The notes under the pieces are model-generated. The model did no database searches and was not told where the DNA came from. It saw nothing but the letters and a program-made list of their open reading frames with translations. A program made the position numbers and the translations under genes. Positions 3,533 to 63,699 of a DNA stretch of 64,000 nucleotides are shown piece by piece (the stretch's first letter is position 1; every line of letters starts with the position of its first letter). Source of the DNA: Flavobacteriales bacterium (GTDB lineage: Bacteria > Bacteroidota > Bacteroidia > Palsa-965); contig NSIF01000001.1 of NCBI GenBank assembly GCA_002737665.1, forward strand, positions 350-64,349, read 5' to 3'.

Positions 3533-3553
3533 ATCAGCAAATTAACAATTAAA

Positions 3554-4741: not shown

Positions 4742-4800
4742 TTTATTGAAATTTAAAAAACGAATTAGATTTTGTAGGTTATGATTTAATAGTTTGTTAC

Positions 4801-13305: not shown

Positions 13306-13319
13306 AATTATTAAATTAA

Positions 13320-46469: not shown

Positions 46470-47828
46470 ATGAAAATACATTTCATCGCAATCGGTGGTA
46501 GCGCAATGCATAATATGGCAATTGCAATGAAACTTAAGGGGAATGAAGTGACGGGTTCGGATGATGAAATCAATGAGCCATCGCGGAGTAGGTTGGCTAA
46601 ATATGGGATTTTACCAACTGAGTTGGGCTGGTATCCGCATCTGTTAACTGCTGCTATTGACGAAGTGATTCTTGGAATGCATGCGCGTGCTGATAATCCA
46701 GAATTGGTTCGTGCGCAAGAACTCGGACTGAGAATATTTTCATATCCAGAATATTTATACGAACAGAGCAAAACAAAAACTCGAATTGTAATTGGTGGTA
46801 GTCATGGAAAGACCTCTATTACTGCTATGGTTTTGCATGTTTTGAAGTACTGTAATGTTGATACAGATTACATGGTTGGAGCTCAATTGGCGGGTTTTGA
46901 AACAATGGTCAAAACAACTGTAGAAGCAAAAAGTATTGTGTTGGAAGGAGATGAATACCTAGCATCACCCGTTGACCGGCGCCCGAAATTTCATTTGTAT
47001 CATCCGCATATTGCTTTGCTTAGTGGAATTGCATGGGATCATATAAATGTGTTTCCAACATTCGATATTTACGTGGAGCAATTCAGAATATTTGTAAATC
47101 TCATTGAGCAAAATGGAACGCTTGTTTATTGCAAGGAAGATAAAGTTTTAATGGAAGTTGCAGGCAAGGCAAGGAAAGACATTGTATTGAAACCCTATGG
47201 AGTTCCTGCTCATGAAATTGTAGATGGAACAACTTATCTATTGCGCAATGGGAAACGCATTCCACTATTGATTTTTGGTGATCACAATCTCATGAATGTG
47301 GAAGGAGCGTGTTTGGTGTGTGAAGGAATGGGAGTGAGTGAATCACAATTTGTTGAAGCGATACAATCGTTTTCAGGAGCAGCTAAGCGTTTGGAATTGG
47401 TCCGCAAGGAAGGAACATTTTCTTGTTACAAAGATTTTGCACATTCTCCTTCAAAGTTAAAGGCAACTACTGCAGCTGTTAAAAAACAATTTCCAAATAG
47501 GAAAATTGTGGCTTGTATGGAATTGCACACATTCAGTTCTCTAACTGCCGATTTTCTGAAAGAATACAATGGAGCAATGGATACTGCCGATGAGGCATTT
47601 GTATATTACAATCCTCATACTATAGAACATAAAAAACTGTCTGCGATTTCAGTTTCACAAGTGAAAGATGCTTTTGCAAGAACTGATTTGAAAGTTTCTA
47701 CGGATTCCAATTCTTTAATAGCAGAATTATCATCTCGTAATTGGAATAATTCTGTTTTACTATTAATGACTTCAGGGAATTTTGATGGAGTAGATTTTAC
47801 TCAATTTGCCAACTCACTTAAGTTGTAG
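46470..47828 (+). CDS. mpl: Mur-ligase-family protein, Mpl-like (UDP-N-acetylmuramate:L-Ala-gamma-D-Glu-meso-DAP ligase).
   Basis: HFIAIGGSAMHNMA N-terminus and GGSHGKTSITAM P-loop. Confidence 0.7.
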   Translation: MKIHFIAIGGSAMHNMAIAMKLKGNEVTGSDDEINEPSRSRLAKYGILPTELGWYPHLLTAAIDEVILGMHARADNPELVRAQELGLRIFSYPEYLYEQSKTKTRIVIGGSHGKTSITAMVLHVLKYCNVDTDYMVGAQLAGFETMVKTTVEAKSIVLEGDEYLASPVDRRPKFHLYHPHIALLSGIAWDHINVFPTFDIYVEQFRIFVNLIEQNGTLVYCKEDKVLMEVAGKARKDIVLKPYGVPAHEIVDGTTYLLRNGKRIPLLIFGDHNLMNVEGACLVCEGMGVSESQFVEAIQSFSGAAKRLELVRKEGTFSCYKDFAHSPSKLKATTAAVKKQFPNRKIVACMELHTFSSLTADFLKEYNGAMDTADEAFVYYNPHTIEHKKLSAISVSQVKDAFARTDLKVSTDSNSLIAELSSRNWNNSVLLLMTSGNFDGVDFTQFANSLKL

Positions 47829-47832
47829 CTTA

Positions 47833-48321
47833 TTAACTAAGACGCTTTTCTTTTAATCTAAAAATTACGGTCACGAGTACAGTTACTGCAAAACCCAATA
47901 AAAAATTTGGATTACTCCAGTACCTTGCGCGGTCTGCCATATTTTGTTTTGTTATCGATGCTAAAAATTCCTGTATTTCACTTCCTCTCCCTGTTTCCAT
48001 CATATGTTTTAAATCTGCAGCAACATTGATATGGGTAAGTGCTATAAAAAATGCAATTCCCCAAATGATAGTGATAATAATTGCTGTTATGCCACCTGCT
48101 TTTAGGCATCGTTTAAAAGTTGATGTGGTAGCTGATTGCATTTCTGCAACCATTTTAATGCTCATGTATATGCACGTGAAGTATGCTAGTTGAGGACTGT
48201 AATAGAGAAACATTTCAACTATTCCTGATGGACCAGTTGACATTGATAACATCATAGAATAGAATTGTAGCATACCTACTACAATTCCACCTATCAATCC
48301 AATAAACACTGGGATTTTCAT
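47833..48321 (-). CDS. Membrane protein (DUF4199-like), four TM helices.
   Basis: Hydrophobic helices. No catalytic motif. Confidence 0.5.
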   Translation of the reverse strand: MKIPVFIGLIGGIVVGMLQFYSMMLSMSTGPSGIVEMFLYYSPQLAYFTCIYMSIKMVAEMQSATTSTFKRCLKAGGITAIIITIIWGIAFFIALTHINVAADLKHMMETGRGSEIQEFLASITKQNMADRARYWSNPNFLLGFAVTVLVTVIFRLKEKRLS

Positions 48322-48368
48322 TTACTATTCAAACTAAATTATTACACCAAAATAGTTTTTAAAATTCC

Positions 48369-50234
48369 TTAACCATTCATGGAAATTAGAAACTCCTCAT
48401 TCGAGTTTGTATTCTTCATTTGAGATTTAAGGAAATCCATTGCTTCTTGTGGATTCATATCAGCAAGGTGATTACGTAAAATCCAAATACGTTGTTGCAT
48501 TTCTTTATCCATCAATAAGTCATCACGTCGAGTAGAAGATGCAACCAAATCAATTGCAGGGAACACACGTTTGTTTGCGAGTTTGCGATCGAGTTGTAAT
48601 TCCATGTTACCTGTTCCTTTGAATTCCTCGAAAATAACTTCGTCCATTTTAGAACCGGTGTCAATCAAAGCTGTTGCAATGATTGTCAATGATCCGCCAC
48701 CTTCAATTTTACGCGCAGCTCCGAAGAATCGTTTTGGTTTTTGTAAAGCATTTGCTTCTACACCACCAGAGAGTACTTTTCCTGATGCAGGTTGAACGGT
48801 ATTGTAAGCACGAGCAAGTCGTGTGATAGAATCAAGAAGAATAACAACATCATGTCCGCACTCAACCATACGTTTTGCTTTTTCCAAAACGATGTTGGCA
48901 ATTTTCACATGTCGATCAGCAGGTTCATCGAATGTTGATGCGATAACTTCTGCTTGAACACTTCTTGCCATATCCGTTACTTCCTCGGGACGTTCATCAA
49001 TTAGAAGTATCATTAGATATGCTTCAGGATGATTATCGGCAATTGCATTTGCAACTTCTTTAAGTAAAATTGTTTTACCAGTTTTCGGTTGAGCAACAAT
49101 TAATCCACGCTGACCTTTTCCAATTGGAGTAAACATATCCATAATTCGCATGGACATATTTGTTTTAGATTTTCCAGTATTGCAAAGGTTGAATTTTTCT
49201 TTAGGAAAAAGAGGTGTTAAAAAATCAAATGGAACACGGTCGCGCACGAAAGCAGGATCTCGGCCAGATATTTTATCAACTTTTACCAATGGAAAATATT
49301 TTTCCCCTTCTTTTGGAGGTCGTACTGCTCCCTTTACGGTATCACCTGTTTTTAATCCGAAAAGTTTTATTTGCGATTGAGAAACGTAAACATCATCAGG
49401 TGAATTTAAATAATTATAATCTGATGATCGTAGGAAACCATAGCCATCGGGCATAATTTCAAGCACACCTTCGGCAACTACAATGTTGTCGAAATTGTAC
49501 ATTTCTTCAATTGGTTTATTTTGTTGAAAAGGTTGTCGATTAAAATCGCCAGGAGTATTTTGATTTTGTTGATTTTGTTGAAATTGCTGACGTTGCTGTG
49601 GGTAATTTTGATGTTGCGGAGGTCGTGGGTTGGGAGTTGGATTAGTGTTTGGAGTTGGATTATTTACCTCATTAGGTAATTTTTGATTTTCATTTTGTTG
49701 TTCACCTGTTTTTTGAATGTTATCTTTTGCAGCTTGTGCCTGTATAAATGCAGGAGGTTGGTTGTATGCAGGCGGGGCAGGAGGTGGGCTTGAATTTTTG
49801 TTATTTTGGTGTGACTTCTGGTAAGGATTTGTAGGGTGAATATTTGGGGTTGTAGGCTGTTGATTTTGTTGTGGAGCTGTTGGACTACTATTTACGCTGT
49901 TAGCTGTGTCAGATGGGATTAAATTAATTTTAGCAGGTTGCTTTTCTGTTGTTTCTTCCAAGGAAACAAATCTTGAATCTACTTTATTTTCAGTGTTTAG
50001 TATTGCAGGTGTTTCTTCTGCAACGATTTCTATTTTAGGTTTGCGTCCCCTTTTCGGTTTTTCATCTCCCGAATCTTTTATTTCATTTTTTGCTCCGCTC
50101 ATTGCTTGTAGATCTAGAATTTTGTAAATAAGTTCTTGTTTTTTAAAGCTTTCAAACTTTGGAATATTGAGACCCTGTGCGATTTCACGGATTTCCCCAA
50201 CCAGTTTGCTGTTTAGGTCTATTATGTCGTACAT
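48369..50234 (-). CDS. rho: Transcription termination factor Rho with a ~200-aa Q/N/P-rich N-terminal insertion domain.
   Basis: Rho_N ([20 protein letters not shown]...). Cold-shock-like RNA-binding domain. P-loop [15 protein letters not shown]. The insertion between Rho_N and the CSD is low-complexity Q/N/P/T. Confidence 0.9.
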
Positions 50235-50518
50235 ATGATGTTGTGAGAATTGATAAAAAGATTTGTTTAAATTTATTTTTGGATTTTGAACATGGAAATA
50301 GAAAGGATAAAAAATTCCACGGATGAAAGATGGTTTATTTTACATGCTTTTGTTAAGAGATTTTTTGGGAAGTGAAAGCCACAGGGCTTTCTCACGCGAA
50401 CATTAGATTGCAATAATACGAAGATTATTTTAATTACAAGCAATTATTGTCTTTTTTTAATGTTTTGTTGACTCAATTTGATTCAGTTTCTTTGTATTTA
50501 ATAAACAAGATTACTATG

Positions 50519-50884
50519 CTGCAGCGTTTTCAATCGATTATCCTTGGACTTATTATTGTATTCTTATTTATAGGACATTTTGTGATTGCTAATGCTAAGC
50601 CATTTTTATTTATTTCAATGATCAGTATTGCTTTCCTTTCCTTTGTTACACTTTTGAGTTTTAAAAAGCGTAAGCGACAAATAGCACTGTGTAAAATCGG
50701 TATTGTTTTATGTTTGTTGATTTCTGTTGGTTTAATGCTGTGGCCTGGAAACTTTTTACAGCATCAGCAAAAAACATCTTTTGAGAATTATTTGTTTTTA
50801 GTTATAGTATTTCTTTTTTTATTGGCTGCGTATTTTATTAAAAAAGACGACAATCTAGTAAAAGGTGCAGATCGGTTAAGATAG
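50519..50884 (+). CDS. Small membrane protein (DUF4293-like), divergent from rho.
   Basis: Four predicted TM helices. The six-frame ORF begins at 50447, but the likely start is MLQRF at 50519. Confidence 0.5.
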   Translation: MQRFQSIILGLIIVFLFIGHFVIANAKPFLFISMISIAFLSFVTLLSFKKRKRQIALCKIGIVLCLLISVGLMLWPGNFLQHQQKTSFENYLFLVIVFLFLLAAYFIKKDDNLVKGADRLR

Positions 50885-50961
50885 TATTTTAGAAATTCAG
50901 ATCATTCATTTCTATGTGAATGATGGAGCTGTTCGTACAGATTAATATTTGATACTATTTT

Positions 50962-53900
50962 TTATCGAATTAAAGAAACGTGACCAATTAAGTTATGTCT
51001 TCGACTTAAACTATCCATCGCTGTTATTTTCCAAACATAAACATCTACTTGGCATTCATTAGAACGACCTTGAACACAGCCATTCCAACCTTTAGCAAGG
51101 TCTGTTGTATTGAAAATTAGATTACCCCAACGATCGAAAATCCATATTTCGAAACGATCTGGATCTATTCCAAAGCTTTGTGATAAAAACAAATCATTAT
51201 CACCATCTCCATTTGGAGTGAAAGCGTTTGGTACATAAAGAGTAACATCGGGGTCTATGCAAATTTGATGTGTAATACTATTTGCACATCCATTAGTACT
51301 GGTAACTGTTAATACTACATCAAAGCAACCTGGTCCACCATAATCATACGTTGGGTTCTGTAAAAACGAACCTGCGTTTAACAAATCTCCAAACGACCAA
51401 CTCCAAGTATTTGCATTTATTGAAAGATCTGTAAAAATAATTACTGGATTTAATTCGGTCGTTGGTTGAGGTGAGGAAGAGAATTCTGCAATAGGGACAG
51501 AATCAACTGTAATGTAATTTATAATTGTATCTGTGAAGACGCAACCACTAGCAGTCTTTACTGATAGTATAACTGTAAATACACCAGCATTTAAATAGCA
51601 ATGTGTTGGGTTTTGAGACGTGGAAACATCACCATCGCCAAAATCCCAATCCCATCCGACAATAGATCCAGATGAAACTGATGAGAGATCAGAAAAATTT
51701 ACACACAATGGCGCGCATCCTGCAAGTGTATCACCGACAAATGCTGCAATTGGATTTGGATAAACAAATAATACAACTGTGGCAGTAGCTGTACATAAAT
51801 TAGCGTCTGTTACATTTACTGTGTAATTCTGAGTTGCAGCAGGAGTTAAAATTTGTACAGGTCCAACTAATGGCCCAGGATTCCATCCATATGTGTAAGC
51901 TGGAGTTCCTCCCAGTGCAGTTCCTGTTATTGTAATAGATTGACCTACGCAAATAGCAGGCGGACTCGCAATTCCTGTAACTGTTAAGAGTGGAGGTTGT
52001 GTGATGGTTAAATTAACGATTGAAGTACATCCTGCAGAATCAGTTACAACAACAGTACAAGCACCAGCAATTAGATTAGTTGCTGAGTTTGTAGTACTAG
52101 ATGAACAATTCCAAGAGTAGCTTATAAGGCCTGTGCCTCCGGTTACATTAATTGATGCCGTTCCATTTGTTCCTCCAAAACAAGAAACAGGTGTTAAGTT
52201 TCCTGCTGTTGCAGTCACACCTGGAATATTGTTGATTGTTACGGAGGCAGTATCATCGCATCCGTTTGCATCTGTCACCACTACAAAATAATTTCCTGCG
52301 ACTACGTTTGTTAGATTTGGCCCCAATGACATAGGGAAATACCAAATTGGAGTTAATGTTCCAGTTCCACCAGAAAACACAGAAGTAGCAGCGCCATCAG
52401 GAAGGTTACAATGTGCATCAATCGCTGTTGCCGTTACAACAACCGCTGATGGTTCGGTAACAGTTGTTGTTGAAGTTGCAGTACAACCATTCAAGTCAGT
52501 AACAATAACAGTATAATTTCCAGCACAACTATTAGAACAGTTTGCTGTGATGCATCCACTGCTCCATGCAAATGAATAACCAGGTGTTCCTCCTTGGGGA
52601 ATAGCCACTACTTGACCATTGCATGCACCAAAGCAGGTAGCGTTTGTTGCTGCTGAACTAGTGCTTAGTAGTGTTGGTTGTGAAATAGTAAATGATTGTG
52701 TTAATGTACAACTATTTAAATCTGTTATAAGGCATGAGTAGACACCAGCACATAGTCCAGTAGCTGTTGGGTTAATACCACCTGACGGAGACCATAAATA
52801 GGTATATCCGGGAGTTCCACCGGAAACAGCAACTGTTGCGCTTCCATTACAAATTGAATTACATGTTAAATTAATTTGTGATTGAATACTTGTTAAAGCT
52901 AAGGGTTGCGTAATTAATACAGTTGTTGTAGAAGTGCATAAATTAAAGTCGGTAATTGTACATGTGTAACTTCCTATGCACAAACCAGTAGCTGTGGTAT
53001 TTGTTCCACCACTTGGTGCCCATGAGTAAGTATAAGGAGGTACACCACTTGATCCAACCACGGTTGCAGTTCCATCGCAAAAGCTGTTACAGGTAACGTT
53101 CGTACTGTTTAAAAGTGTTACTGTTGGTGATGCAGCATTTGTAACGGTAACGGTAGTGATATAAGTACATAAATTAAAATCTGTAATTACGCATGTGTAA
53201 ATTCCTGCAAGTAAATTTATTGCTGTTAATGTTGTTTGGTTGGATGGAGTCCAAAGTATCGAGTAGGGTGGAACACCTCCACTTGGATTAACAGTTGCCG
53301 ATCCATTTGCGTTACCACATGTTGTTCCAACAGATGAAGTGGTAGCAGTTATAGCAGACGGTTGTGTTATTGTGAACGATCTTGTTAAAGTGCATCCTAA
53401 TGGAGAACTTATTGTACAGGTATAAGTTCCTGCACATAAGCCAATGGCAGTAGGAGCTGTTCCACCTGATGGCGCCCAAGCATAAGTATAAATACCTGTT
53501 CCTCCAGCTGCAACTACTGTTGCCGTTCCGATGCACACGCCATTGCAAGATACGTTAACTTGAGATTGGGTTGCTGTAATTTGTGGAGGTTGTGTAATTG
53601 TAAATAATTGTGTTATAAAACAACCTGTAGGTGAACTTATTGTGCAGGTATAGTTTCCAGCGCACAATCCAATTGCCGTAGCGGCATTTCCACCTGATGG
53701 TGCCCAAGCGTAGGTATAGTTACCTGTCCCACCAGCTGCAATAACTGTAGCTGTTCCAGCACATACGCCATTGCACGTGAGGTTAACTTGTGATTGAGTG
53801 GCTGTAATTTGTGGAGGTTGAGTAATTATAAATGATTGTGTTATAAAACAACCATTTGGTGAGCTGATGGTACAGGTGTAGGTTCCGGCACACAATCCAA

Positions 53901-56397
53901 TTGCCGTTGCTGCATTTCCGCCAGTAGGTGCCCAAGCATAGGTGTAAATTCCTGTTCCGCCTGCGGCCACAACCGTAGCTGTGCCATTACAAACACCATT
54001 ACACGTAACATCAACTTGCGATTGGGTAGCTGTAATTTGTGGAGGTTCTGTGATTGTGAATGTTTGTGTTATAAAACAATTTACAGGAGAACTTATTGTA
54101 CACGTGTATGTTCCGGCACACAAGCCGGTGGCAGTAGCAGCAGTTCCTCCAGAAGGTGCCCATGCATAAGTGTAAATTCCATTTCCACCACTTGCTGTAA
54201 CGGTAGCTATTCCCGTACAACCACCAAAACAAGTAACGTTTGTTTGAGTAGGTATTGCTACGATTAGTGGTGCCTGTGTAATTGTAAATATTTGATTTAC
54301 AATACAATTAATAGGAGAACTAACAGTACACGTATATGTTCCTGCGCATAAACCAGTTGCACTTGCTGCCGTTCCTCCTGAGGGTGCCCATAAATATGTA
54401 AACGTTCCGTTACCACCCGACGCTACAACTGCTGCACTTCCAGTACATCCTCCAAAACAATCTATATTTATTTGAGAAGGTACGACTGTAATGGGTGGAG
54501 GTTGTGTAATTGTAAAGGTTTGCGTAATTGAACATCCTAATGGCGAACTAATAGTACAGGTGTAGTTTCCTGCGCACAATCCGGTTGCAGCGGATGCTGT
54601 TCCACCAGTTGGTGACCATAAATAAGTAAATGTGCCATTTCCACCAGATGCAACAACATTAGCGGAACCCTGACATTGTCCATTGCAGTCAAGATCTATT
54701 TGGTGAGGGATTGCTACAATTGGAGGAGGTTCTGTGATTGTGAATGTTTGTGTTATAAAACAATTTACAGGTGAACTAATTGTACAAGTATATGTTCCAG
54801 CACAAAGTCCAGTCGCAGTGGCAGCTGTTCCTCCAGATGGCGCCCAAGCGTAGGTATAGATCCCTGTTCCACCAGACGCAATAACAGTAGCAGTTCCATT
54901 ACAAACCCCGTTACAGTTTGCGTTTACTTGTGATTGTGTTGCGGTGATTACTGGCGACTGAGTAATTGTTACAATACTTGTATCTATGCATCCATTGAGG
55001 TCTGTTACAGTGAGTGTATAAGATCCTGCACAAAGGGCGGTGGCATTATTTACGTTACCTACTGTTGTGTTTGCAACTATAGGCGCCCACACAAACGTGT
55101 AAGGGCTTGTTCCACCAAGTGCTGTATTTGTTGTGGCACCAGTGCAACCCCCATTGCAAATAACATTTATTTGATTGCCTGTAAGAGCCAACGGACTGAA
55201 GGATTGAGCAACTACAACTGAATCTATTCCTATAACGCAACCTCCATTACCTGTAACTGTTACCGTGTAGGTGCCAGGACATAAACCCGTAGCAGTAGCC
55301 GCTGTTCCACCTGAAGGTGCCCAAGCGTAGGTGTAGGGAGCTGTTGCATTTGTTACTGATGTAACTGTTGCTGTACCATTACAATTTGTGCAAACTGCAC
55401 TTGTATTGCTGGTAGTAAGTATCATATTAGAAAGTGGGCATTGGGTGCATGTTGTTTTATAGTACAACCCAATCATAGAGACGTTGTAGCAATCATTGGG
55501 TGCATAAAACGCATAGTTCACTGAATTTTGAGCATTCGTTAGTGAAGTGGTCACTTGAGCATAGTTCCACCAATTTGGTGAAAACGGCGCATTAATGCTG
55601 TTCATTGTACAGGTCTGTCCACCCACATTGCATTGCATATCACCCATTAAACAAAATGCAATTGCGTTTGGTTGATTTACAGTTTGGCATGCTGAAAAAT
55701 TATTTACCGCGCGTGTTGTACCGCCCCCAAGCATTACTACTGCTCCGTCGTGAATTACAATTGTACCTGCATAATTTACAGTGGGATCACTGTAAATTAC
55801 GAATAAGGTTGCCCCATCCATATCATTACCAGAGGTGGGTGGGTTGGTCATTAATCCACTGATATTATAGGTGCCATTTCCTCCAATGACCGATGTGACA
55901 TCGGCTCTGTAGGTGTGGGAACCTGAATAGCCCCAGCATTTATCTGCTGCTGAGCCAACCAGCAGTACTGGAATATTTGCATTACCAAACGGACCAGTTA
56001 TTACAGCTGTTTGTGCTGCACCGTTTCCAGAACCCTCTGCCCAAAGGAATGCTTTTTCAATAACGGCACATGCTGGTAAACCACTGATTACATAAGCCAT
56101 TGGTTGGTTAGGACTAGCAGGAGGGCAAGTTGCACCAAATCTTTTACCTACTTTTTTAGTAACCTGTTTGAAGTTTAGTCCACATTTGGTGAAATTGTAG
56201 ATTTGTCCTAATGAACTATTCCCATTTTGTGGCGTAGGTTCCGGTGCTAAACGTAAATTAAATTGATTTGAAGAAAAACTACAAGCGCCAGGAATCCCGG
56301 TACTATCATATGAGGCACGAACAATTGCTTGACTAAATGAAATAGTTGGAGTTGCTAAGAAAAAAAGGAAACATAAAATTTTTAGCAATCTTTTCAT
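50962..56397 (-). CDS. Giant cell-surface adhesin-like protein (1811 aa). It has a novel N-terminal domain, about 17 SprB repeats, a PKD domain, and a T9SS type-B (gliding-motility-associated) C-terminal domain.
   Basis: Signal peptide. ~77-aa repeats with the C..C.G.ATV...GG..PYTY.W.P SprB signature. PKD segment ...CAPLCVNFSDLS...NPTHCY. C-terminal TLYVPNAFTPNGDGDNDLF...WGNLIF...VYVW gliding CTD. Confidence 0.8.
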   Translation of the reverse strand: MKRLLKILCFLFFLATPTISFSQAIVRASYDSTGIPGACSFSSNQFNLRLAPEPTPQNGNSSLGQIYNFTKCGLNFKQVTKKVGKRFGATCPPASPNQPMAYVISGLPACAVIEKAFLWAEGSGNGAAQTAVITGPFGNANIPVLLVGSAADKCWGYSGSHTYRADVTSVIGGNGTYNISGLMTNPPTSGNDMDGATLFVIYSDPTVNYAGTIVIHDGAVVMLGGGTTRAVNNFSACQTVNQPNAIAFCLMGDMQCNVGGQTCTMNSINAPFSPNWWNYAQVTTSLTNAQNSVNYAFYAPNDCYNVSMIGLYYKTTCTQCPLSNMILTTSNTSAVCTNCNGTATVTSVTNATAPYTYAWAPSGGTAATATGLCPGTYTVTVTGNGGCVIGIDSVVVAQSFSPLALTGNQINVICNGGCTGATTNTALGGTSPYTFVWAPIVANTTVGNVNNATALCAGSYTLTVTDLNGCIDTSIVTITQSPVITATQSQVNANCNGVCNGTATVIASGGTGIYTYAWAPSGGTAATATGLCAGTYTCTISSPVNCFITQTFTITEPPPIVAIPHQIDLDCNGQCQGSANVVASGGNGTFTYLWSPTGGTASAATGLCAGNYTCTISSPLGCSITQTFTITQPPPITVVPSQINIDCFGGCTGSAAVVASGGNGTFTYLWAPSGGTAASATGLCAGTYTCTVSSPINCIVNQIFTITQAPLIVAIPTQTNVTCFGGCTGIATVTASGGNGIYTYAWAPSGGTAATATGLCAGTYTCTISSPVNCFITQTFTITEPPQITATQSQVDVTCNGVCNGTATVVAAGGTGIYTYAWAPTGGNAATAIGLCAGTYTCTISSPNGCFITQSFIITQPPQITATQSQVNLTCNGVCAGTATVIAAGGTGNYTYAWAPSGGNAATAIGLCAGNYTCTISSPTGCFITQLFTITQPPQITATQSQVNVSCNGVCIGTATVVAAGGTGIYTYAWAPSGGTAPTAIGLCAGTYTCTISSPLGCTLTRSFTITQPSAITATTSSVGTTCGNANGSATVNPSGGVPPYSILWTPSNQTTLTAINLLAGIYTCVITDFNLCTYITTVTVTNAASPTVTLLNSTNVTCNSFCDGTATVVGSSGVPPYTYSWAPSGGTNTTATGLCIGSYTCTITDFNLCTSTTTVLITQPLALTSIQSQINLTCNSICNGSATVAVSGGTPGYTYLWSPSGGINPTATGLCAGVYSCLITDLNSCTLTQSFTISQPTLLSTSSAATNATCFGACNGQVVAIPQGGTPGYSFAWSSGCITANCSNSCAGNYTVIVTDLNGCTATSTTTVTEPSAVVVTATAIDAHCNLPDGAATSVFSGGTGTLTPIWYFPMSLGPNLTNVVAGNYFVVVTDANGCDDTASVTINNIPGVTATAGNLTPVSCFGGTNGTASINVTGGTGLISYSWNCSSSTTNSATNLIAGACTVVVTDSAGCTSIVNLTITQPPLLTVTGIASPPAICVGQSITITGTALGGTPAYTYGWNPGPLVGPVQILTPAATQNYTVNVTDANLCTATATVVLFVYPNPIAAFVGDTLAGCAPLCVNFSDLSSVSSGSIVGWDWDFGDGDVSTSQNPTHCYLNAGVFTVILSVKTASGCVFTDTIINYITVDSVPIAEFSSSPQPTTELNPVIIFTDLSINANTWSWSFGDLLNAGSFLQNPTYDYGGPGCFDVVLTVTSTNGCANSITHQICIDPDVTLYVPNAFTPNGDGDNDLFLSQSFGIDPDRFEIWIFDRWGNLIFNTTDLAKGWNGCVQGRSNECQVDVYVWKITAMDSLSRRHNLIGHVSLIR
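53330..54950 (-). repeat. Seven tandem, near-identical 231-bp coding repeats (SprB-repeat units) inside the giant adhesin gene.
   Basis: Units ITATQSQVN...TFTITEPP recur. Units 1 and 4 share a 47-aa identical stretch and at least 44 nt of identical DNA (ggttctgtgattgtgaatgtttgtgttataaaacaatttacagg at ~54045 and ~54727). Confidence 0.7.
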
Positions 56398-56486
56398 TGG
56401 TTAAATGCAGTGCTTAAGTTATATTATTATAAATGTTTTATTACGATATAAAATTTAGGGCAATTATTATGAAATCAAATACTTGG

Positions 56487-58904
56487 CTATCTTATTAGGT
56501 TAACATGTCCAATTACTTTACGCTTTTTACCACCATTTATTTCTCTGTAATTTATGACCCAAACATAGGTATCTATTTGCGCTAGTTTTTTTCCATCATT
56601 GGCCTTTCCGTCCCATCCTTTGAGTTGGTCATAGGATTCGAAAATCATATTTCCCCAACGGTCAAATACCATCATGTGAAAATCATCAACATATTCACCG
56701 ATTGCAAAGAATATTTCATTCAAGCCATTTCCATTTGGAGTAAAAGTGTTTGGCACAAACAATGAGGTGTATGGATTTACATAAATGTCATAACGAATTG
56801 TATCCGCACATCCATATTGATTCACAACAATTTCTGTAACATGATAAAGTCCTGTATCAGCATATGTATTTGATACGTCACCACATCCAACAACTATTAG
56901 TGTATTTCCATCACCGAAGTCCCAATAGCAGGTATCTCCTCCTATACTTAAATCATCAATTACAGCTACGGGTTCTAATAGTGTTGAAGGATTTTCAGAA
57001 GTAATATTGAAAGCAGCAACAGGTGTTGGATAGGTATTAATGTAATTGACGATAGTCATTGAATCGACACAACCGTTATTATCACTTAAAACTAGCGTAA
57101 CTGCAAAGCTTCCAACATTAATGTAACAATGTGTCGGGTTGGCACCAATTCCATAAGAATTGTCTCCAAAATTCCATGCACAACTTCCAATTCCTGAGTT
57201 TGATACAGCTGTAAATGTTACGCAATGTGGAGCGCAGCCACTTAATATATCACCTGTATAACTAATTACAGGAAGTGGGTTTACAATTATTGTAAATACT
57301 GCAGTATCATGAATTGTAAAACAAGCATCTGCAATTATAACTGAATAAGTTGTGGTTGTGGTTGGGCTGACAGTTATTGTATTGGTAGTATTAACTGCGT
57401 TGATCCATGAATAAGTATAGGGTGGTGCGCCTCCAAGAACACTTACGGATAAGATGCTTGATTGTCCAATGCAAATTGGAGTAGGTCCTACAATTGTGCC
57501 AACAATTGGGACGTTTGCAGGTTCGGTTATTGTAAAAGTTGCGGATGTCTGACAGCCAAAATTATCTGAAACATTTACTGTATAAATACCAGCACCAAGA
57601 TTAATGGCGCTATTTGTATTACTTACGTTTGGTGACCAAACATATGTGTATGGCGGATTTCCTCCGGTTGGATTGAATGTGGCTGTTCCAATGGTATCTC
57701 CGTAGCAGAGATTATTGGTAGAAACTTGCGTAAAAGTTAATATTCCTGTTGCCAGTACCACTACAGAATCAATAGTTGTGCAACCTAATGCATCAGTTAC
57801 AGAACAAACATAAACACCAGGAGGAAGACCAACTGCTGTTTGTGTATTTTGAACTGGCACTGTGTTCCATGTGTATGTAAAGTTTCCTGATCCACCAAGT
57901 GGAGTAGCAGTTGCGGTACCTATAGAAGCGGAACAAGTACTAGGGATGGAATCCATATCAAGTAAGAATGGAGTTGGACAGCAAGAAGAGCAGTTTGATT
58001 GCCAATATAAGCCCATAACACAAAAGTTATAGCAATCTCCACCCGAACTATTACCAAAGGCAGAAGATGTTTGCCCTGGTGTAACTATTGTAGGAACGTC
58101 AATCCAATTCCACCAATCCTCAACACAAACTATTGGAAAAACCCCATTTAATGTAAGCTGAGAACCGAGATTTTGTAAATCGCCTTGTGCCATAAAAGCT
58201 CTTGCATTGCTAGTAGTACCTGTACAAGCTGCAAATCCTGTAATTGTTTGTGTTGTACTTCCGCCATTAATAACCACGCATCCATCCCAAATTACAATAT
58301 CTCCCTGCCAGGTTTGTGTTGGATTGCTCCAAATTACCATCATCGTTGCCCCATCTATGTCCTCCCCAGATGTTGGAGGATTTGTTGGAAATCCACTAAT
58401 TGTATAATTTCCATTTCCCGTTATATGAGAAGTAACATCTGCTCTGTATGTAAATGTTCCTGTATAGCCCCAGCACTTATCTTGATCTTGCCCTATCATA
58501 GTCATAGGAAATGGAGAAGAATTAGCAAGCGGATTGGTGACATTTAAAGTTATTGGAATCCCTGTGCCAGAACCCTCACACCAAACATAAGCTTTTTGAA
58601 TAACGGCAGATGCTGGGATTCCAGAAATTGCAAATGTTGCTGGCTGAACTGAACTTGGTGAGTTTAACAATGGAAATCGCATCCCTATTTTTTGACTTGC
58701 AGTGGTATAATTTACACCACAATCACTAATTGAATAGGTTGCTCCAAGAAATGTACTTCCATCCTGTGGTGAACTTGGTTTTACAGATTGGGAAGTTGAG
58801 TATTTTAAAGCGGGATTTTGACCATTTATGGGAGTAGATCCTGTTTGTGCACTAAGGGTGAAACATACCCCTATGCAAATTGATAACAATAAAGTGGCTC
58901 TCAT
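56487..58904 (-). CDS. Paralogous adhesin-like protein (805 aa). It has the same N-terminal domain as the giant gene, about three SprB repeats, a PKD domain, and a T9SS type-B C-terminal domain.
   Basis: DKCWGYTGTFTYRADVTSHITGNGNYTISGFPTNPPTSGEDIDGATMMVIWSNPT aligns with the giant protein N-domain. GGNPPYTYVWSP SprB signature. C-terminal SLFVPNTFTPNGNGLNEIFF...WGNMIF...YVWV. Confidence 0.75.
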   Translation of the reverse strand: MRATLLLSICIGVCFTLSAQTGSTPINGQNPALKYSTSQSVKPSSPQDGSTFLGATYSISDCGVNYTTASQKIGMRFPLLNSPSSVQPATFAISGIPASAVIQKAYVWCEGSGTGIPITLNVTNPLANSSPFPMTMIGQDQDKCWGYTGTFTYRADVTSHITGNGNYTISGFPTNPPTSGEDIDGATMMVIWSNPTQTWQGDIVIWDGCVVINGGSTTQTITGFAACTGTTSNARAFMAQGDLQNLGSQLTLNGVFPIVCVEDWWNWIDVPTIVTPGQTSSAFGNSSGGDCYNFCVMGLYWQSNCSSCCPTPFLLDMDSIPSTCSASIGTATATPLGGSGNFTYTWNTVPVQNTQTAVGLPPGVYVCSVTDALGCTTIDSVVVLATGILTFTQVSTNNLCYGDTIGTATFNPTGGNPPYTYVWSPNVSNTNSAINLGAGIYTVNVSDNFGCQTSATFTITEPANVPIVGTIVGPTPICIGQSSILSVSVLGGAPPYTYSWINAVNTTNTITVSPTTTTTYSVIIADACFTIHDTAVFTIIVNPLPVISYTGDILSGCAPHCVTFTAVSNSGIGSCAWNFGDNSYGIGANPTHCYINVGSFAVTLVLSDNNGCVDSMTIVNYINTYPTPVAAFNITSENPSTLLEPVAVIDDLSIGGDTCYWDFGDGNTLIVVGCGDVSNTYADTGLYHVTEIVVNQYGCADTIRYDIYVNPYTSLFVPNTFTPNGNGLNEIFFAIGEYVDDFHMMVFDRWGNMIFESYDQLKGWDGKANDGKKLAQIDTYVWVINYREINGGKKRKVIGHVNLIR

Positions 58905-59136
58905 TGCAATATTTTAGTTAACCAAAGATACAAATAAATAATGAAACGCTAACTATTTTACCTGATTTTATAGGGCTTAAGGCGTAGAAGTTAATACCCT
59001 CATTTTTTTGCATTTTCAGTGAGCATAGATTTACTCAGTTTGGCATTCTTAGTGTAATTCTGAAATGTCAGAATGTAATTGTAGGCGGTAGTTTTAGTAG
59101 CAATATTGCAAATGAAAAAATAGTTTAATAGTAAAC

Positions 59137-59811
59137 TCACCAATCTTTAGAATTGCTACGATCATATCCAAGTTTTTTAATTCTATGCTTCATACGTTCC
59201 CGGATTTTTGTTTCATTGTCTTTTAAAGCATTTAACATTTGTTGTGCTTCTTCTTTGCTCATGGCAGGGTTAGGTTCTTGCTGATCTGTCTTTTTTTCTT
59301 TTTTATCTGGCTCTTTATCTTTTTGTTTTTTGTTTTGTTTGTTCTTGTTTTTTTTAGGTGATTGTTTTTTTAATTTTGATTGTGCGTAGGCAAGATTGTA
59401 CCTCGTTTGTTCATCACTTGGTTTTAATTTTAGTGCTTGTTTAAAAGCATTTATACTTTCTTCATATTTTTTCTGTGCTAACATAGCATTTCCAAGGTTG
59501 TGCCAAGTTTTAGATAGGGAATCAGCATTTAATCCTCCTGTTGCGTTGGCAAATGCCTGTGCTGCCTCGTCGTATTTTTTTAGTTTATATAATGTATTTC
59601 CTAAATTAAAATTAGCTGCATTTTTATTTGCATCGTATTTTGTTGCAGCATTATATTTTTTCTCTGCGGTATTAAAATCCCCTTTTTTAAAGCTCTTGTT
59701 TCCAGCTCTCGTATTTTTGTAATTATCGATAGTTTCCGTTTGTGGTTGTTGAGCATTCAATACTTGAATGAAAGTGATACAAAGAATTTTAATTAATATT
59801 TTGCGCTTCAT
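59137..59811 (-). CDS. batC: TPR-repeat protein, BatC-like (aerotolerance operon).
   Basis: Signal peptide. Three to four TPR units. K/Q/E-rich tail. Operon position after two VWA genes. Confidence 0.6.
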   Translation of the reverse strand: MKRKILIKILCITFIQVLNAQQPQTETIDNYKNTRAGNKSFKKGDFNTAEKKYNAATKYDANKNAANFNLGNTLYKLKKYDEAAQAFANATGGLNADSLSKTWHNLGNAMLAQKKYEESINAFKQALKLKPSDEQTRYNLAYAQSKLKKQSPKKNKNKQNKKQKDKEPDKKEKKTDQQEPNPAMSKEEAQQMLNALKDNETKIRERMKHRIKKLGYDRSNSKDW

Positions 59812-60833
59812 AAATTATTTTCATTAGTGCTATTTCTTTTTCCTTCTGGGAGCAATCCTTCAATCAAAAAAAGTAAAATAGAAACGATCAGAAACCATTG
59901 GAATAATGGAGTTTGGTGTGTCGTTCTCCAAGTATCTTTTGTTGTTTTATTAATGTTTTTTAAAAGCTTATAAATTGCAACAATTCCTAAATCGTTTTTT
60001 GAAGCATGTACATAAATTCCTTGACCTTCTTTTGCTATTTCTTTTAACACAACTTCATCTAGTTTTGAAATAATTACTTTTCCATTTTCATCTTTTTTAT
60101 TGGTGATCACAGTGCTATTATCATTCAATTCTGGTATGGTTGTCCCTACAAGTGATCCGATTCCGATGGTACACACAATTACGCCATTAGCTGCCGCTCT
60201 ACGCGCTGCTTTAACAGCATCACCGTCATGATTTTCTCCATCAGTAATTAAAATTATCGCTTTCCCACGATCTTTCTCCACCTTTATAATGGATGCCAGC
60301 GCATTGTCTAATGCAAAACCAATTGAAGTGCCTTGCATGGAAATCATTTCTGGAGTTATGGATTGCAACAGCATGGCAGCTGCAGCATGGTCGCTGGTTA
60401 GTGGTAGACATGTGTAAGCTTGAGCGGCAAAAACAACGATTCCAAACCGATCTGTTCCCATTGTTGCAAGCAGTTGTTGCAAAGCTAATTTTGCGCAATC
60501 AATTCTATTGGGTAGTATGTCTTGTGCTTTCATACTATTTGAAACATCAAGGGCAATAATAATATCAATGCCACTTATTTTTATTTTTTCTTTTCCACTT
60601 GCATAGTTAGGGCCACTACATGCTAAAATTAAAAAAACGATGGCCATTAAAAATAAAATGAAATGTGTTTTGCGAAGTCCTTCATGGTTGCCAATATGTA
60701 ATTTTTCGTCAAAAGCACCTTCGGTGAATTTTCTAATTTTAATTGCTCGTTTTTTTACAGCTCTTCTCCAGACCAGTATTATGGGAATGACTAGCAACAA
60801 TACTAAAAGCATCCAAGGGTTTTCGAAGCTCAT
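59808..60833 (-). CDS. batB: VWA-domain membrane protein, BatB-like.
   Basis: N-terminal TM. MIDAS DVSNSM...TDGE. C-terminal TM. 4-nt overlaps with neighbouring genes. Confidence 0.7.
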   Translation of the reverse strand: MSFENPWMLLVLLLVIPIILVWRRAVKKRAIKIRKFTEGAFDEKLHIGNHEGLRKTHFILFLMAIVFLILACSGPNYASGKEKIKISGIDIIIALDVSNSMKAQDILPNRIDCAKLALQQLLATMGTDRFGIVVFAAQAYTCLPLTSDHAAAAMLLQSITPEMISMQGTSIGFALDNALASIIKVEKDRGKAIILITDGENHDGDAVKAARRAAANGVIVCTIGIGSLVGTTIPELNDNSTVITNKKDENGKVIISKLDEVVLKEIAKEGQGIYVHASKNDLGIVAIYKLLKNINKTTKDTWRTTHQTPLFQWFLIVSILLFLIEGLLPEGKRNSTNENNL

Positions 60834-61858
60834 GTTAAGTTGTTGAAGAAGGTATAGCGCAAACTAAATTCTAATACAATAAATAAGAACCCTAATAGTA
60901 AGAATGGTAAAAACTCTTCTTTTCGCTGTTCGATTTCTTTCTTTTCAAATTTATTTTTTTCAAGTTTGTTGATTTCACCATAAATTCTTTTTAAGTTTTT
61001 TGAATCGGAGGCACGGAAATATCTCCCCCCTGTAGTAGTTGCAATTTCACGCAGCGTACTTTCATCAATTGCGACATCTCTAAATTCGTAATTTATTGTT
61101 CCATCAGGATTTTGCGATACGGGTGTTTGAACTTTTCCATGGGTTGCACTAAGACCAATGGTATAAATACGAACTCCAAATGTTTTGGCCATTTGTGCGG
61201 CCTCGATTGGCTGGATGGTTCCTTTTCCATTTTCTCCGTCTGTCAATAAGATAATCACTTTACTTTTTGCTTTACTTTCAATTATTCTTTCTACTGCTTT
61301 TGCCAGACCCATTCCAATGGCAGTGCCTTGTTCCAATTCGCCACCATTTATTTCAATGTTATCAATTAATAATTTTAATGCTTCATGGTCTGTTGTTAAT
61401 GGACAAATGGTGAATGCTTCGCCACTAAATACCACCATTCCAATTCGGTCGGCTGGTCGTTCATCTACAAAATTTATTGCTTGTGCTTTTGCTGCTTCCA
61501 TTCTTGAAGGCCTTCCATTTCCCTCGTCGCGCGCGTCCATACTTGTACTAATGTCAATGGTTAATAGGATATCGATTCCTTCGCCATAGGTTACTTTATA
61601 ACCTCTGAGCGATTGCGGTTTTGCAAATGCTGTAAGTAATAAAATAAGACTTAAAAAGCGCAAGCAATAAAGAACTGGTCTCCATTTAACTTTTGTTGGA
61701 ATTCGTATTCCATGCAAATAGTTTAAAGTTGAAATTTTTAGTGCTGATCTTTTTTTCTTTGCTAAATAATATGTGCTAATTATAAAAAATGGAACGATAG
61801 GGAATAACCAAAATACCCATTGCTCTGCAAAAATTAAAGTTTGCCACCAGTTCATCAT
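60830..61858 (-). CDS. batA: VWA-domain membrane protein, BatA-like.
   Basis: N-terminal TMs. DISTSMDARD...TDGEN MIDAS. Confidence 0.7.
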   Translation of the reverse strand: MMNWWQTLIFAEQWVFWLFPIVPFFIISTYYLAKKKRSALKISTLNYLHGIRIPTKVKWRPVLYCLRFLSLILLLTAFAKPQSLRGYKVTYGEGIDILLTIDISTSMDARDEGNGRPSRMEAAKAQAINFVDERPADRIGMVVFSGEAFTICPLTTDHEALKLLIDNIEINGGELEQGTAIGMGLAKAVERIIESKAKSKVIILLTDGENGKGTIQPIEAAQMAKTFGVRIYTIGLSATHGKVQTPVSQNPDGTINYEFRDVAIDESTLREIATTTGGRYFRASDSKNLKRIYGEINKLEKNKFEKKEIEQRKEEFLPFLLLGFLFIVLEFSLRYTFFNNLT

Positions 61859-62820
61859 TGTATTGGTGAAATTATAGGTTCGGGATAAATAGCAGTAGTT
61901 TTCACAAAATTAATTGCGAGTTCAAGGCAGTTTTCGTTTTCTTCAGGTTTGGGAAATTCCTTTGCAAACTTTACCCTATCGGATTTTCTTAGTACGGATT
62001 CTAATTTTTGTGTTGCATCTGAATTGGATTGTAATTTAAGTAGTGTATTAATTATTTCTTCAGTTGTTAATTCTAAAGCGTGAATTTGGTATCGGGTTAC
62101 AAGCCAGTTTCGTAAAATTTCAGTAAGTGTTATGTGAAATATTTTTAGTTCTCCATGAAGCCAAGGTTTTTTTTGGCCTAAAGCTATCAGCAGTGCTAAG
62201 GTTTTTTCGTGTGGTGGAATGGCTATAACTTTAGACTCAATTGGAATGGATTTATTTTTCTTGTTACTAAAATATAGGAACAGAATTATACTCATCAATA
62301 TCAGAAACACTCCGCTTATTCCAAGCCATTTTAGTACAGAATATTTCGTTGTTTCTATTGGAGCTGCTGGAACTTCGTAAATATCTTTGATGTCTTTTAT
62401 TGGTTGAGTTGTGTCGATGGGAACCGTTGTGACAATAAGTAAAAGTTTATTGGTGTATACCGTGTCGTTGTTAATGATAAAAGTTTGCGATGGGATAACG
62501 TAAGTGCCCGAGTCAAATGCTGTGATGATTACGGATCTTGTTTGTTGGTATAAAACAGATGATTGGCTGATAAGAATGGTTGTGATGGAGTCAATTTTAA
62601 TTATTTCTAAACCATAGGAAAGTGTATCCTTAAGATTGGGCCATGTAATTTTTGTTTTTTTTGTTCCTTCGTGGTAGCTCACAGAAAATTTTAATTCTGT
62701 TTGTTCTCCTATTTTTATTTGTGTTTGCATCAACAGCGCTTCCGCCTCAGCGCGTTGCGCGGAAATAGTGTTGCTTAAAAAAAATAGCAATGAAAAAAGA
62801 AGATGTATTTTCGATTTCAT
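61855..62820 (-). CDS. Hypothetical signal-peptide/TM protein of the Bat cluster, between DUF58 and BatA.
   Basis: Signal peptide. One mid-protein TM (WLGISGVFLILMSIILFLYF). Operon position. Confidence 0.5.
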   Translation of the reverse strand: MKSKIHLLFSLLFFLSNTISAQRAEAEALLMQTQIKIGEQTELKFSVSYHEGTKKTKITWPNLKDTLSYGLEIIKIDSITTILISQSSVLYQQTRSVIITAFDSGTYVIPSQTFIINNDTVYTNKLLLIVTTVPIDTTQPIKDIKDIYEVPAAPIETTKYSVLKWLGISGVFLILMSIILFLYFSNKKNKSIPIESKVIAIPPHEKTLALLIALGQKKPWLHGELKIFHITLTEILRNWLVTRYQIHALELTTEEIINTLLKLQSNSDATQKLESVLRKSDRVKFAKEFPKPEENENCLELAINFVKTTAIYPEPIISPIQ

Positions 62821-62823
62821 TTA

Positions 62824-63699
62824 TTAAAGACGTTTTTCTCTTTTTCGGAAAAGGGCAGATAATATTTTAATGTAGCCAGCACCTGTTGCGATATGGGCTA
62901 CATCAACACCACTTTTTTTGAATAAATCATTTAGACTCAATTGATGTATTTTGGATGCTTGTTCGTATTGCTTACGTACGTTAGCGTCAGCTGTATCAAC
63001 CCAAAGCAATTCGTTTGTTTCTGAATCGATGAGTTGGACTAATCCAATATTGGGTAATTCTAACTCCCGGCGGTCAAAAATATGTAAGGCCACAACATCG
63101 TGCCTTTGATTTGCAATTTTTAATGCCTTATCGAATTGAGGGCACATAAAATCGGATATTAAAAAAACAATACTGCGATTTTTTATAGCATTGGTACAAT
63201 ATTCCAAAGCAACTGCAAGGTTTGTTCCTGCTCCTGTAGCTTTGAATTGCAAGGACTCGCTGATCATTCGAAGTATGTGTTTTTTTCCTTTTTTAGGTGG
63301 AATAAATTTTTCCACTTTATCACTAAAAAAGAGTACACCTACTTTATCATTATTGAGCATGGCGGAAAATGAAATTACTGCGGATAATTCAGTAATGAGT
63401 TCTTGTTTAAGTTGTGCCTGAGTTCCAAATGTGCCCGACTTACTTACGTCAACTAATAGTATGATTGAAAGTTCTCGTTCTTCTTGAAAAACTTTTACAT
63501 AGGGATGGTTAAATCGTGCTGTAACGTTCCAATCTATGGTTCGTACTTCGTCACCCGGTTGGTATTCTCTTACCTCAGAAAATGTCATGCCACGACCTTT
63601 GAAAGCACTGTGATATTCTCCCGAAAAAACTTGGTTTGTTAGTCCGCGTGTTTTCAATTCTATCTTTCTAACTTTTTTAAGAATGTCGTTTGTCTCCAT
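62824..63699 (-). CDS. DUF58-family protein (MoxR-associated, VWA-like).
   Basis: EYQPGDEVRTIDWNVTAR motif typical of DUF58. Confidence 0.75.
   Translation of the reverse strand: METNDILKKVRKIELKTRGLTNQVFSGEYHSAFKGRGMTFSEVREYQPGDEVRTIDWNVTARFNHPYVKVFQEERELSIILLVDVSKSGTFGTQAQLKQELITELSAVISFSAMLNNDKVGVLFFSDKVEKFIPPKKGKKHILRMISESLQFKATGAGTNLAVALEYCTNAIKNRSIVFLISDFMCPQFDKALKIANQRHDVVALHIFDRRELELPNIGLVQLIDSETNELLWVDTADANVRKQYEQASKIHQLSLNDLFKKSGVDVAHIATGAGYIKILSALFRKREKRL

Follow-up and report, generated by a model that had tools for sequence, protein, structure and literature searches.

Two adjacent genes in the 64-kb stretch of DNA that was analysed (the window) probably encode a tandem pair of T9SS type B surface fibres, in which a DUF3344-like head is carried on a stalk of SprB repeats and the outer-membrane shuttle is encoded elsewhere in the genome. 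Both open reading frames lie on the minus strand where the initial annotation had placed them, and the architecture that it had proposed was recovered in both proteins by Pfam (SprB, PKD/PKD_4 and CHU_C) and NCBIfam (TIGR04131). Their N-termini are indeed homologous, with 46% identity across 267 aa (E 2e-79; E 7e-87 for the whole proteins), and the three motif blocks previously quoted as shared are found in both translations. The pair and its closest surroundings comprise the following features:

50447..50884, plus strand: convergent DUF4293 membrane-protein gene, a conserved neighbour downstream of the cassette formed by the pair (Pfam and related-locus comparison).
50962..56397, minus strand: large paralogue, 1811 aa, with signal peptide, DUF3344-like head, about 16 SprB repeats, PKD domains and type B CTD.
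56332..56397, minus strand: signal peptide of the large protein, residues 1-22, MKRLLKILCFLFFLATPTISFS, followed by QA; Sec-type, read from the translation, cleavage site inferred.
56398..56486, minus strand: 89-bp spacer separating the small gene from the large one; a search for a TAnnTTTG motif and a terminator-like hairpin found neither.
56487..58904, minus strand: small paralogue, 805 aa, with signal peptide, DUF3344-like head, three SprB-type repeats, PKD domains and type B CTD.
58848..58904, minus strand: signal peptide of the small protein, residues 1-19, MRATLLLSICIGVCFTLSA, followed by QT; hydrophobic and Sec-type, read from the translation, cleavage site inferred.

A gap of 77 bp separates the end of the large gene from the DUF4293 ORF. 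Read by eye, each N-terminus has one or more basic residues together with a hydrophobic core, and its junction is of the A/S-Q kind; the short segment that follows the Sec-type N-terminus is of low confidence in the structure model of each protein. The heads come next:

55426..56247, minus strand: head of the large protein, DUF3344-like, residues 51-324 (HMM envelope, reverse profile match and an all-beta, double jelly-roll-like model).
57969..58784, minus strand: head of the small protein, DUF3344-like, residues 41-312 (local HMM envelope and a reverse profile match from validated DUF3344 segments, E 2.3e-31).

Intermediate sequences place the head in Pfam DUF3344 (PF11824), as a divergent branch from Bacteroidota. 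The head had been described as unrecognised, and for direct searches with curated models this description holds: neither N-domain has a Pfam or NCBIfam match even at E<=1, neither reaches by itself the DUF3344 gathering score of 27.2 bits (no match at E<=0.1), and none of the 26 members of head alignment A1 matches DUF3344 at E<=1. Nevertheless, a named family does exist, and profile-to-sequence, profile-profile and reciprocal profile searches all lead to it. In a database of 5.8 billion sequences, the N-domain profile A2 matched proteins from Anaerolineales, Terriglobales and other groups (E 1e-29 to 1e-10), with values of 1e-29 to 1e-20 for sequences P0225-P0240. Seven of the non-Bacteroidota matches exceed the DUF3344 gathering score, at 34-50 bits, and cover its 275-position model largely or almost completely. 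Alignment of A2 with P0225 by hhalign gave a probability of 99.8% (E 1.4e-28) over 234 columns that correspond to the DUF3344 region of P0225. Conversely, a reverse profile built solely from the seven validated DUF3344 segments returned the head of the small protein as well as that of the large one (E 2.8e-28).

Since the window proteins fall below the Pfam DUF3344 HMM, membership rests on these intermediates. Of what the initial annotation had named as evidence against its reading, a match to a known family, only a part was found: no function is assigned to DUF3344, and the window proteins themselves miss its HMM. A precomputed PF11824 flag on three other sequences, P0020, P0201 and P0211, was not reproduced with the Pfam copy used (no DUF3344 match at E<=1 for the first, nor at E<=0.01 for the other two), and the DUF3344 link is based on the non-Bacteroidota intermediates instead. 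The profile search of representatives used A1, whose columns still held a SprB repeat; as a result, its best matches were dominated by giant SprB proteins and its family-size counts were unusable, and only about 37 matches with an N-terminal full-domain alignment were kept from it. Profile searches of PDB sequences returned nothing for the head, and their two weak matches fell on SprB-repeat columns.

Homology between DUF3344 and the window heads extends over about 235 of 275 positions and includes the core motifs C-W, YRaDVT, GNG.Y.I.G, DGA.L.vIYsDP, I.DG, GD.Q and DC. DUF3344 is likewise joined to PKD and other extracellular modules. In contrast to the rest of the family, the Bacteroidota branch lies under the current Pfam HMM (no match at E<=1), has extra conserved cysteines and, in many members, a CPGVPGACGY-type leader, and occurs in fusion with SprB repeats and T9SS CTDs.

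DUF3344 is a domain of unknown function found in bacterial and archaeal proteins that are secreted or exposed on the cell surface, including surface proteins encoded on Methanoperedens plasmids. In the survey of fibrillar adhesins by Monzon and Bateman, it is a terminal domain of predicted fibrillar adhesins and forms cluster 23, a candidate adhesive domain of 'ambiguous function' (PMC9210967). The best structural match of that cluster suggests a protease-associated domain, and catalysis was explicitly left possible (PMC9210967). This raises the alternative that the head is catalytic and that the proteins are 'fibrillar enzymes', whose stalk would carry a hydrolase or some other enzyme, instead of adhesins. 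Several nearly invariant polar residues of the head family (C, W, R and D, in DKCW...YRADVT, DGAT, GD.Q and DC) are compatible with such a role, as are weak Foldseek matches to beta-sandwich domains of glycosidases and PNGase F, although these domains are themselves non-catalytic. The head models are confidently all-beta (pLDDT 82.8, pTM 0.80; pLDDT 92.6 for the first lobe), but their structural matches in the PDB are generic jelly-rolls only, with TM <= 0.41, and no enzyme family was matched by sequence in Pfam, NCBIfam or PDB profiles. Moreover, the conserved cysteines are equally explicable as disulfides of a secreted domain, and a position at the tip of a stalk is typical of binding domains. 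An enzymatic head is therefore considered unlikely.

The stalks and the domains that follow them are located as follows:

51523..51756, minus strand: PKD domain of the large protein, residues 1548-1625 (Pfam).
51763..55410, minus strand: stalk of the large protein, residues ~330-1545, about 16 SprB-type repeats, limits approximate (Pfam SprB and motif spacing).
53405..54898, minus strand: DNA tandem array within the stalk of the large protein, period 228 bp (76 aa), 6.6 copies, 72% matches.
57051..57272, minus strand: PKD domain of the small protein, residues 545-618, followed by a second, weaker PKD (Pfam).
57285..57962, minus strand: stalk of the small protein, residues ~315-540, three SprB-type units of ~77 aa, limits approximate (Pfam SprB; YTY.W spacing of 77 aa).

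Pfam SprB (PF13573) is above threshold in both proteins, with 12 stretches in the large one (E 9.3e-84) and three in the small one (E 3.1e-12), and motif spacing places 13 of the approximately 16 repeats of the large stalk at a regular 76 aa. Like fibrillar adhesins, the proteins combine a globular head at the N-terminus with a repetitive stalk and an anchor signal at the C-terminus, and their stalk length varies by repeat expansion (here the 228-bp array; homologues range from 550 to 3130 aa). They differ from other fibrillar adhesins in their predicted anchoring, which would be of the T9SS type B and not by sortase/LPXTG or as an autotransporter. The corresponding signals are at the extreme C-termini:

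50965..51234, minus strand: type B CTD of the large protein (CHU_C/TIGR04131), residues 1722-1811 (Pfam and NCBIfam).
56490..56759, minus strand: type B CTD of the small protein (CHU_C/TIGR04131), residues 716-805 (Pfam and NCBIfam).

Both exceed the curated cut-offs of CHU_C (PF13585; 49.8 bits for the large and 52.9 for the small protein, cut-off 27) and TIGR04131 (47.8 and 44.9 bits, respectively; cut-off 35). No T9SS core genes are found in the window, and a T9SS in the host is implied by the type A CTDs (Por_Secre_tail) of three other window proteins. As stated in the initial annotation, the window also lacks a sprF or porP gene: Pfam scans of its ORFs of >=200 aa found none, and a jackhmmer profile of six Pfam-validated PorP_SprF proteins matched none of its ORFs of >=70 aa. 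However, the absence of an adjacent partner is not the anomaly that it had been taken for, as orphan type B substrates are already documented and adjacency is the exception in related loci of the head family, with a neighbouring PorP/SprF in only 3 of 71. In F. johnsoniae, a cognate PorP/SprF is adjacent for 9 of 12 type B substrates and is thus usual but not obligatory, while 3 of the 12 are 'orphans' that have a common, unlinked and distant shuttle, Fjoh_1677 (PMC12618676). These orphans resemble the window proteins in their SprB-repeat stalk, their C-terminal TIGR04131/PF13585 domain and the lack of a porP/sprF next door, and by analogy the window proteins would also be displayed through a PorP/SprF barrel encoded elsewhere. 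By contrast, the window proteins form part of a conserved tandem cassette of two or three genes and are much shorter than SprB. The earlier reading, namely a truly new adhesin domain with an unusual, possibly new, mode of export or anchoring without a cognate sprF, could draw on the lack of a direct curated HMM match, of a PDB sequence match and of PorP_SprF in 64 kb. Nevertheless, it is largely refuted by the reciprocal and highly significant homology to DUF3344, and orphan substrates are an experimentally resolved category (PMC12618676), which makes it highly improbable.

The pair forms an ancient cassette of two or three genes in conserved order, which is new in this analysis. In about 20 species-level MAGs, the cassette lies between the bat operon and rho, with a gene of ~805 aa first and then one or two long genes, and in a neighbour-joining tree all of these first genes form one clade. 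A recent duplication of the pair was rejected, since this tree splits small from long paralogues before the divergence of the species. In about 20 species, the orthologues of the small gene have stayed at 802-832 aa, and an identical small gene is present in independent assemblies. At one related locus, L019, the small gene is split. The head family as a whole comprises at least 107 ORFs at 71 loci in 48 species-level assemblies; these counts are lower bounds, as the scan was made from a tighter alignment, A3, and depended on two peptide patterns. Among the 107 ORFs, the C-terminus is a type B CTD in 81 and a type A CTD in 3; the other 23 are truncated at contig ends. The head lies at the N-terminus of nearly all homologues that were examined, ahead of SprB repeats and a T9SS CTD.

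Upstream of the cassette, the window contains:

58923..58930, minus strand: TATCTTTG, which fits the -7 promoter motif of Bacteroidota, TAnnTTTG, and precedes the ATG of the small gene by 19-26 nt.
59137..63699, minus strand: co-oriented remnant of a bat operon, with DUF58, a 321-aa BatD-domain protein, BatA, BatB and TPR/BatC.

In syntenic genomes batD occupies this place; it is absent from the window, where it has been lost. In the approximately 20 MAGs, batD is followed after 17-133 bp by the first cassette gene, which has the same orientation, and the bat operon genes upstream of the cassette overlap by 4 bp. This spacing, together with the lack of a PorP/SprF within 10 kb at any bat-linked cassette locus, would fit a cassette that is a functional part of the Bat (MoxR-VWA aerotolerance) system and is co-expressed, assembled or anchored through Bat proteins; anchoring of this kind would account for the lack of a linked PorP/SprF. 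However, rho and a Mur ligase, which are unrelated housekeeping genes, belong to the synteny just as much, a sign that gene order was conserved vertically, and where DUF3344-like type B proteins occur in other lineages or elsewhere in the same MAGs, no bat genes adjoin them. In addition, the window retains both adhesin genes intact without batD, a TAnnTTTG motif stands just upstream of the small gene, and a literature search found no link between Bat proteins and the T9SS. Membership in the Bat system is thus very unlikely. The motif itself is a weak candidate for the small gene's own promoter, as TAnnTTTG is not enriched in the window overall; scans of the window for sigma-70 promoters and intrinsic terminators gave chance-level results. 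As an extension of Bat/MoxR-VWA function, the Bat envelope complex, and not a dedicated PorP/SprF, might help to assemble, anchor or regulate the fibres of the cassette. This is a long shot, but if true it would provide a concrete output for the long-enigmatic Bat operon and a PorP-independent fate for type B cargo.

The missing shuttle and the lost batD next door, along with the split gene at L019, might also suggest that the genes are decaying relics whose export was lost. Nevertheless, the ORFs are intact over 805 and 1811 codons, the CTDs score above curated cut-offs, and both the constant small-gene length and its identity in independent assemblies argue against decay, which is extremely unlikely.

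For the favoured reading, that of type B fibres served by a distant shuttle, the export steps are modelled on what is established for the T9SS. Once exported by Sec, each protein would be guided by its type B CTD through the SprA translocon, where an outer-membrane shuttle of the PorP/SprF type, with its gene at another place in the genome, would collect it. The CTD would not be cleaved and would stay on the shuttle barrel, so that the stalk would hold the DUF3344-like head off the cell. Judging from the architecture, the head may bind a ligand, for which a glycan or another surface is the most plausible candidate, the difference in stalk length may place related heads nearer to or farther from the cell, and the proteins may ride the gliding track like SprB.

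Both the possible role of DUF3344 as the adhesive tip of fibrillar adhesins and the existence of orphan type B substrates are already known, the bat-adjacent cassette and the batD loss are minor points of comparative genomics, and the practical value overall is modest. The finding also contributes a natural and well-populated case of orphan type B substrates, which could be used to study the rules of CTD-shuttle pairing. For DUF3344, the predicted position at the distal tip of a fibre gives the family a consistent structural context, which supports a binding role. Finally, the current Pfam model misses a sizeable Bacteroidota branch whose members nearly always carry SprB repeats and a T9SS CTD as well, and adding this branch to DUF3344 would provide an annotation for the heads of many 'hypothetical' T9SS surface proteins.

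Two co-oriented genes, separated by a spacer of 89 bp, encode fibrillar surface proteins of the T9SS that belong to the orphan type B class, that is, type B CTD substrates without an adjoining sprF/porP gene. They are an ordinary kind of object, and the features concerned are as follows.

56487-58904, minus strand: small gene, ORF of 805 aa
50962-56397, minus strand: large gene, ORF of 1811 aa
58923-58930, minus strand: TATCTTTG, a TAnnTTTG-type motif upstream of the small gene that might, tentatively, mark a separate transcript start

In both proteins, Pfam matches SprB repeats (12 stretches in the large protein, E 9e-84, and 3 in the small one), PKD/PKD_4 and a C-terminal CHU_C, and the NCBIfam model for the T9SS type B sorting domain, TIGR04131, covers the last ~90 residues above its curated cut-off. 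Thus, Pfam and TIGR04131 confirm the SprB, PKD and type B CTD regions described in the initial annotation. The two proteins align over their full length (E 7e-87), and their shared N-terminal domains, or heads, of which the large one spans residues 51-324, are 46% identical across 267 residues (E 2e-79), which bears out the homology proposed for them; the motif blocks quoted in its support are all present. Likewise, the convergent DUF4293 ORF does lie 77 bp beyond the end of the large gene.

The head had been described as an unrecognised domain. This holds insofar as no Pfam or NCBIfam model matches either N-domain directly, but profile searches in both directions place the head in DUF3344. 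A word-indexed search with the N-domain of the large protein returned 25 homologues, all from uncultured Bacteroidia or metagenomes, in which the head is followed by SprB repeats and then by a type B or type A T9SS CTD. The AlphaFold2 model built from their alignment is confident (pLDDT 82.8, pTM 0.80) and all-beta, with ~16 strands preceded by a linker of low confidence; for the first ~150 residues, modelled separately, the pLDDT was 92.6. Foldseek, run against the PDB, gave only weak, generic jelly-roll matches (TM at most 0.27 for the whole head and at most 0.41 for the first lobe), namely GH86 accessory domains, PNGase F, Cry toxin domains, and viral capsid and TNF/C1q-type jelly-rolls. 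None of the PDB sequence profiles matched the head.

A trimmed and more diverse head alignment of 29 sequences (A2) retrieved 106 proteins as a profile. Ranked after the Bacteroidota group, with E values from 1e-29 to 1e-10, were proteins of Anaerolineales, Terriglobales, Patescibacteria and one actinobacterium. PF11824 (DUF3344) is a precomputed annotation for many of these, and 7 clear the Pfam DUF3344 gathering score with matches that span most or nearly all of the model's 275 positions. When A2 was compared by hhalign with P0225, one of the retrieved proteins, the probability was 99.8% (E 1.4e-28) over 234 columns that correspond to the DUF3344 region of P0225, with C-W, YRADVT, GNG.Y.I.G, DGA.L.VIYSDP, I.DG, GD.Q and DC as common motifs. 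Nearly invariant residues of the head fall within DKCW, YRADVT, GNG and DGAT. In the reverse direction, an HMM made from only the 7 Pfam-validated DUF3344 segments recovered both heads, with E 2.3e-31 for that of the small protein and E 2.8e-28 for that of the large one. The head is therefore a divergent branch of DUF3344 in Bacteroidota, one that lies beyond the reach of the present Pfam HMM. The family is named but uncharacterised.

The metagenomic protein P0128 (800 aa) has two tandem DUF3344-like domains (residues 34-298 and 451-711) and, as assigned by eye, an apparent type A CTD. This combination points to the head as a mobile module, untied from type B export.

A scan of GTDB representatives, with one genome per species, found 107 ORFs with the head domain in 71 loci from 48 assemblies. 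These are Bacteroidota MAGs almost throughout, with one cultured strain, Emticicia sp. BO119. Some family contigs carry other labels, namely L002, L055 and L056 (Synechococcus sp.), L070 (Akkermansia sp.) and L031 (Competibacteraceae); these are probably mis-binned or mislabelled, the family being otherwise restricted to Bacteroidota and linked to T9SS. The head directly follows the signal peptide in almost all ORFs, 81 of which end in a type B CTD and 3 in a type A CTD, with 23 cut by a contig end.

Tandem arrays are common, and in these a gene of ~802-832 aa comes first, followed by one or two long genes of ~1190-2190 aa. When the heads were placed in a neighbour-joining tree, all first-position proteins of ~805 aa, including the small protein of the window, formed one clade apart from the long ones. 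The window pair are therefore ancient paralogues kept in a fixed order, and did not arise by a recent duplication. The length of the long genes varies through repeat expansion; for instance, the large gene holds at 53405-54898 a tandem array of 228 bp (76 aa) units, with 6.6 copies and 72% matches, that encodes SprB repeats.

Some irregular gene calls were also observed. In other contigs of the same population, the large gene is called shorter or truncated (1506, 698 and 557 aa); these contigs may end inside it, in which case the assembly would have broken within the repeats. In locus L019, the first-position gene is split into ORFs of 200 and 578 aa (3217-3819 and 3913-5649), explained either by pseudogene formation or by a frameshift error in sequencing. 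Mini-ORFs of ~200 aa follow the third cassette gene in L006 (14651-15241), L008 (14616-15221) and L009 (201 aa, 49 bp after the long gene). They consist only of a PKD domain and a type B CTD, as checked with Pfam for L008 alone, and could represent remnants or a minimal form of type B cargo.

The initial annotation had noted that the window holds no SprF-like ORF, and this absence is real across the 64 kb. Pfam finds no PorP_SprF among window ORFs of at least 200 aa. In L030, a PorP_SprF gene overlaps the stop codon of a DUF3344-headed gene, and a jackhmmer profile seeded from it recovered 6 PorP_SprF genes in related loci, each of them Pfam-confirmed, and none among window ORFs of at least 70 aa. 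A missing partner is, however, no anomaly. [quoted passage not shown] PorP/SprF directly adjoins the family in 3 of the 71 loci (downstream in L030, upstream in L065 and L043) and accounts for one of 35 ORFs immediately downstream of a locus's last DUF3344-headed gene. The orphan state is thus the rule among DUF3344-headed Bacteroidota proteins.

The window also encodes three secreted proteins with type A CTDs (Por_Secre_tail; 6361-7776, minus strand; 32181-35468, plus; 41316-42926, plus), which indirectly argue for a working T9SS in this organism. Elsewhere, at 11857-14495 on the minus strand, a 391-aa ORF that has no Pfam match is followed directly downstream by the gene for a FadL/Toluene_X-like outer-membrane protein (482 aa); the two look like an uncharacterised two-gene outer-membrane unit.

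The cassette, as we call the ordered DUF3344-headed genes, occupies the same position in ~20 species-level MAGs. The conserved order, corresponding to 46470-63699 of the window, is DUF58, a 321-aa protein, batA, batB, batC (TPR), batD, the cassette, convergent DUF4293, rho, a 162-aa ORF and a convergent Mur ligase. It persists with Rho identity down to ~66% (L003, L004, L008, L019, L022, L025, L029, L038, L041, L042 and others). In the ~20 syntenic loci, batC and the cassette are separated by a gene for BatD (Pfam PF13584, 558-584 aa), which overlaps the batC stop codon. In the window, only 232 bp (58905-59136) separate batC (59137-59811) from the small gene and batD is absent; the same gap and the same absence are seen in L001, a Logan contig from the same organism that is independent of the window. 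A tblastn search of the whole 64 kb recovered no trace of batD. DUF3344-headed genes in other lineages, or elsewhere in these MAGs, have no bat neighbours. Because of this, and because the block holds unrelated housekeeping genes, we take the bat adjacency for inherited gene order, with functional coupling as the less likely reading. Among the same 35 downstream ORFs, 8 match Metallophos_2 (phosphoesterase), and these are probably the ORFs of 164-179 aa in L003, L004, L025, L029, L038, L057, L060 and others; the corresponding window position has no such ORF.

From established T9SS biology (PMC10202324, PMC9143113, PMC12618676), both proteins would be exported by Sec, recognised by their CTD and passed through the SprA translocon, and then captured by a PorP/SprF-type barrel encoded elsewhere. 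The uncleaved CTD would stay on the barrel, with the SprB-repeat stalk pushing the head outward. Going by architecture alone, the head is a putative binding module, and the short and long paralogues may present related heads at different heights. The main rival reading, a catalytic head, seems improbable to us.

A substantial Bacteroidota branch thus escapes the Pfam DUF3344 model. Its members consistently sit at the distal tip of SprB-repeat T9SS proteins, and its genes make up, next to the bat operon, a conserved cassette with a set order.
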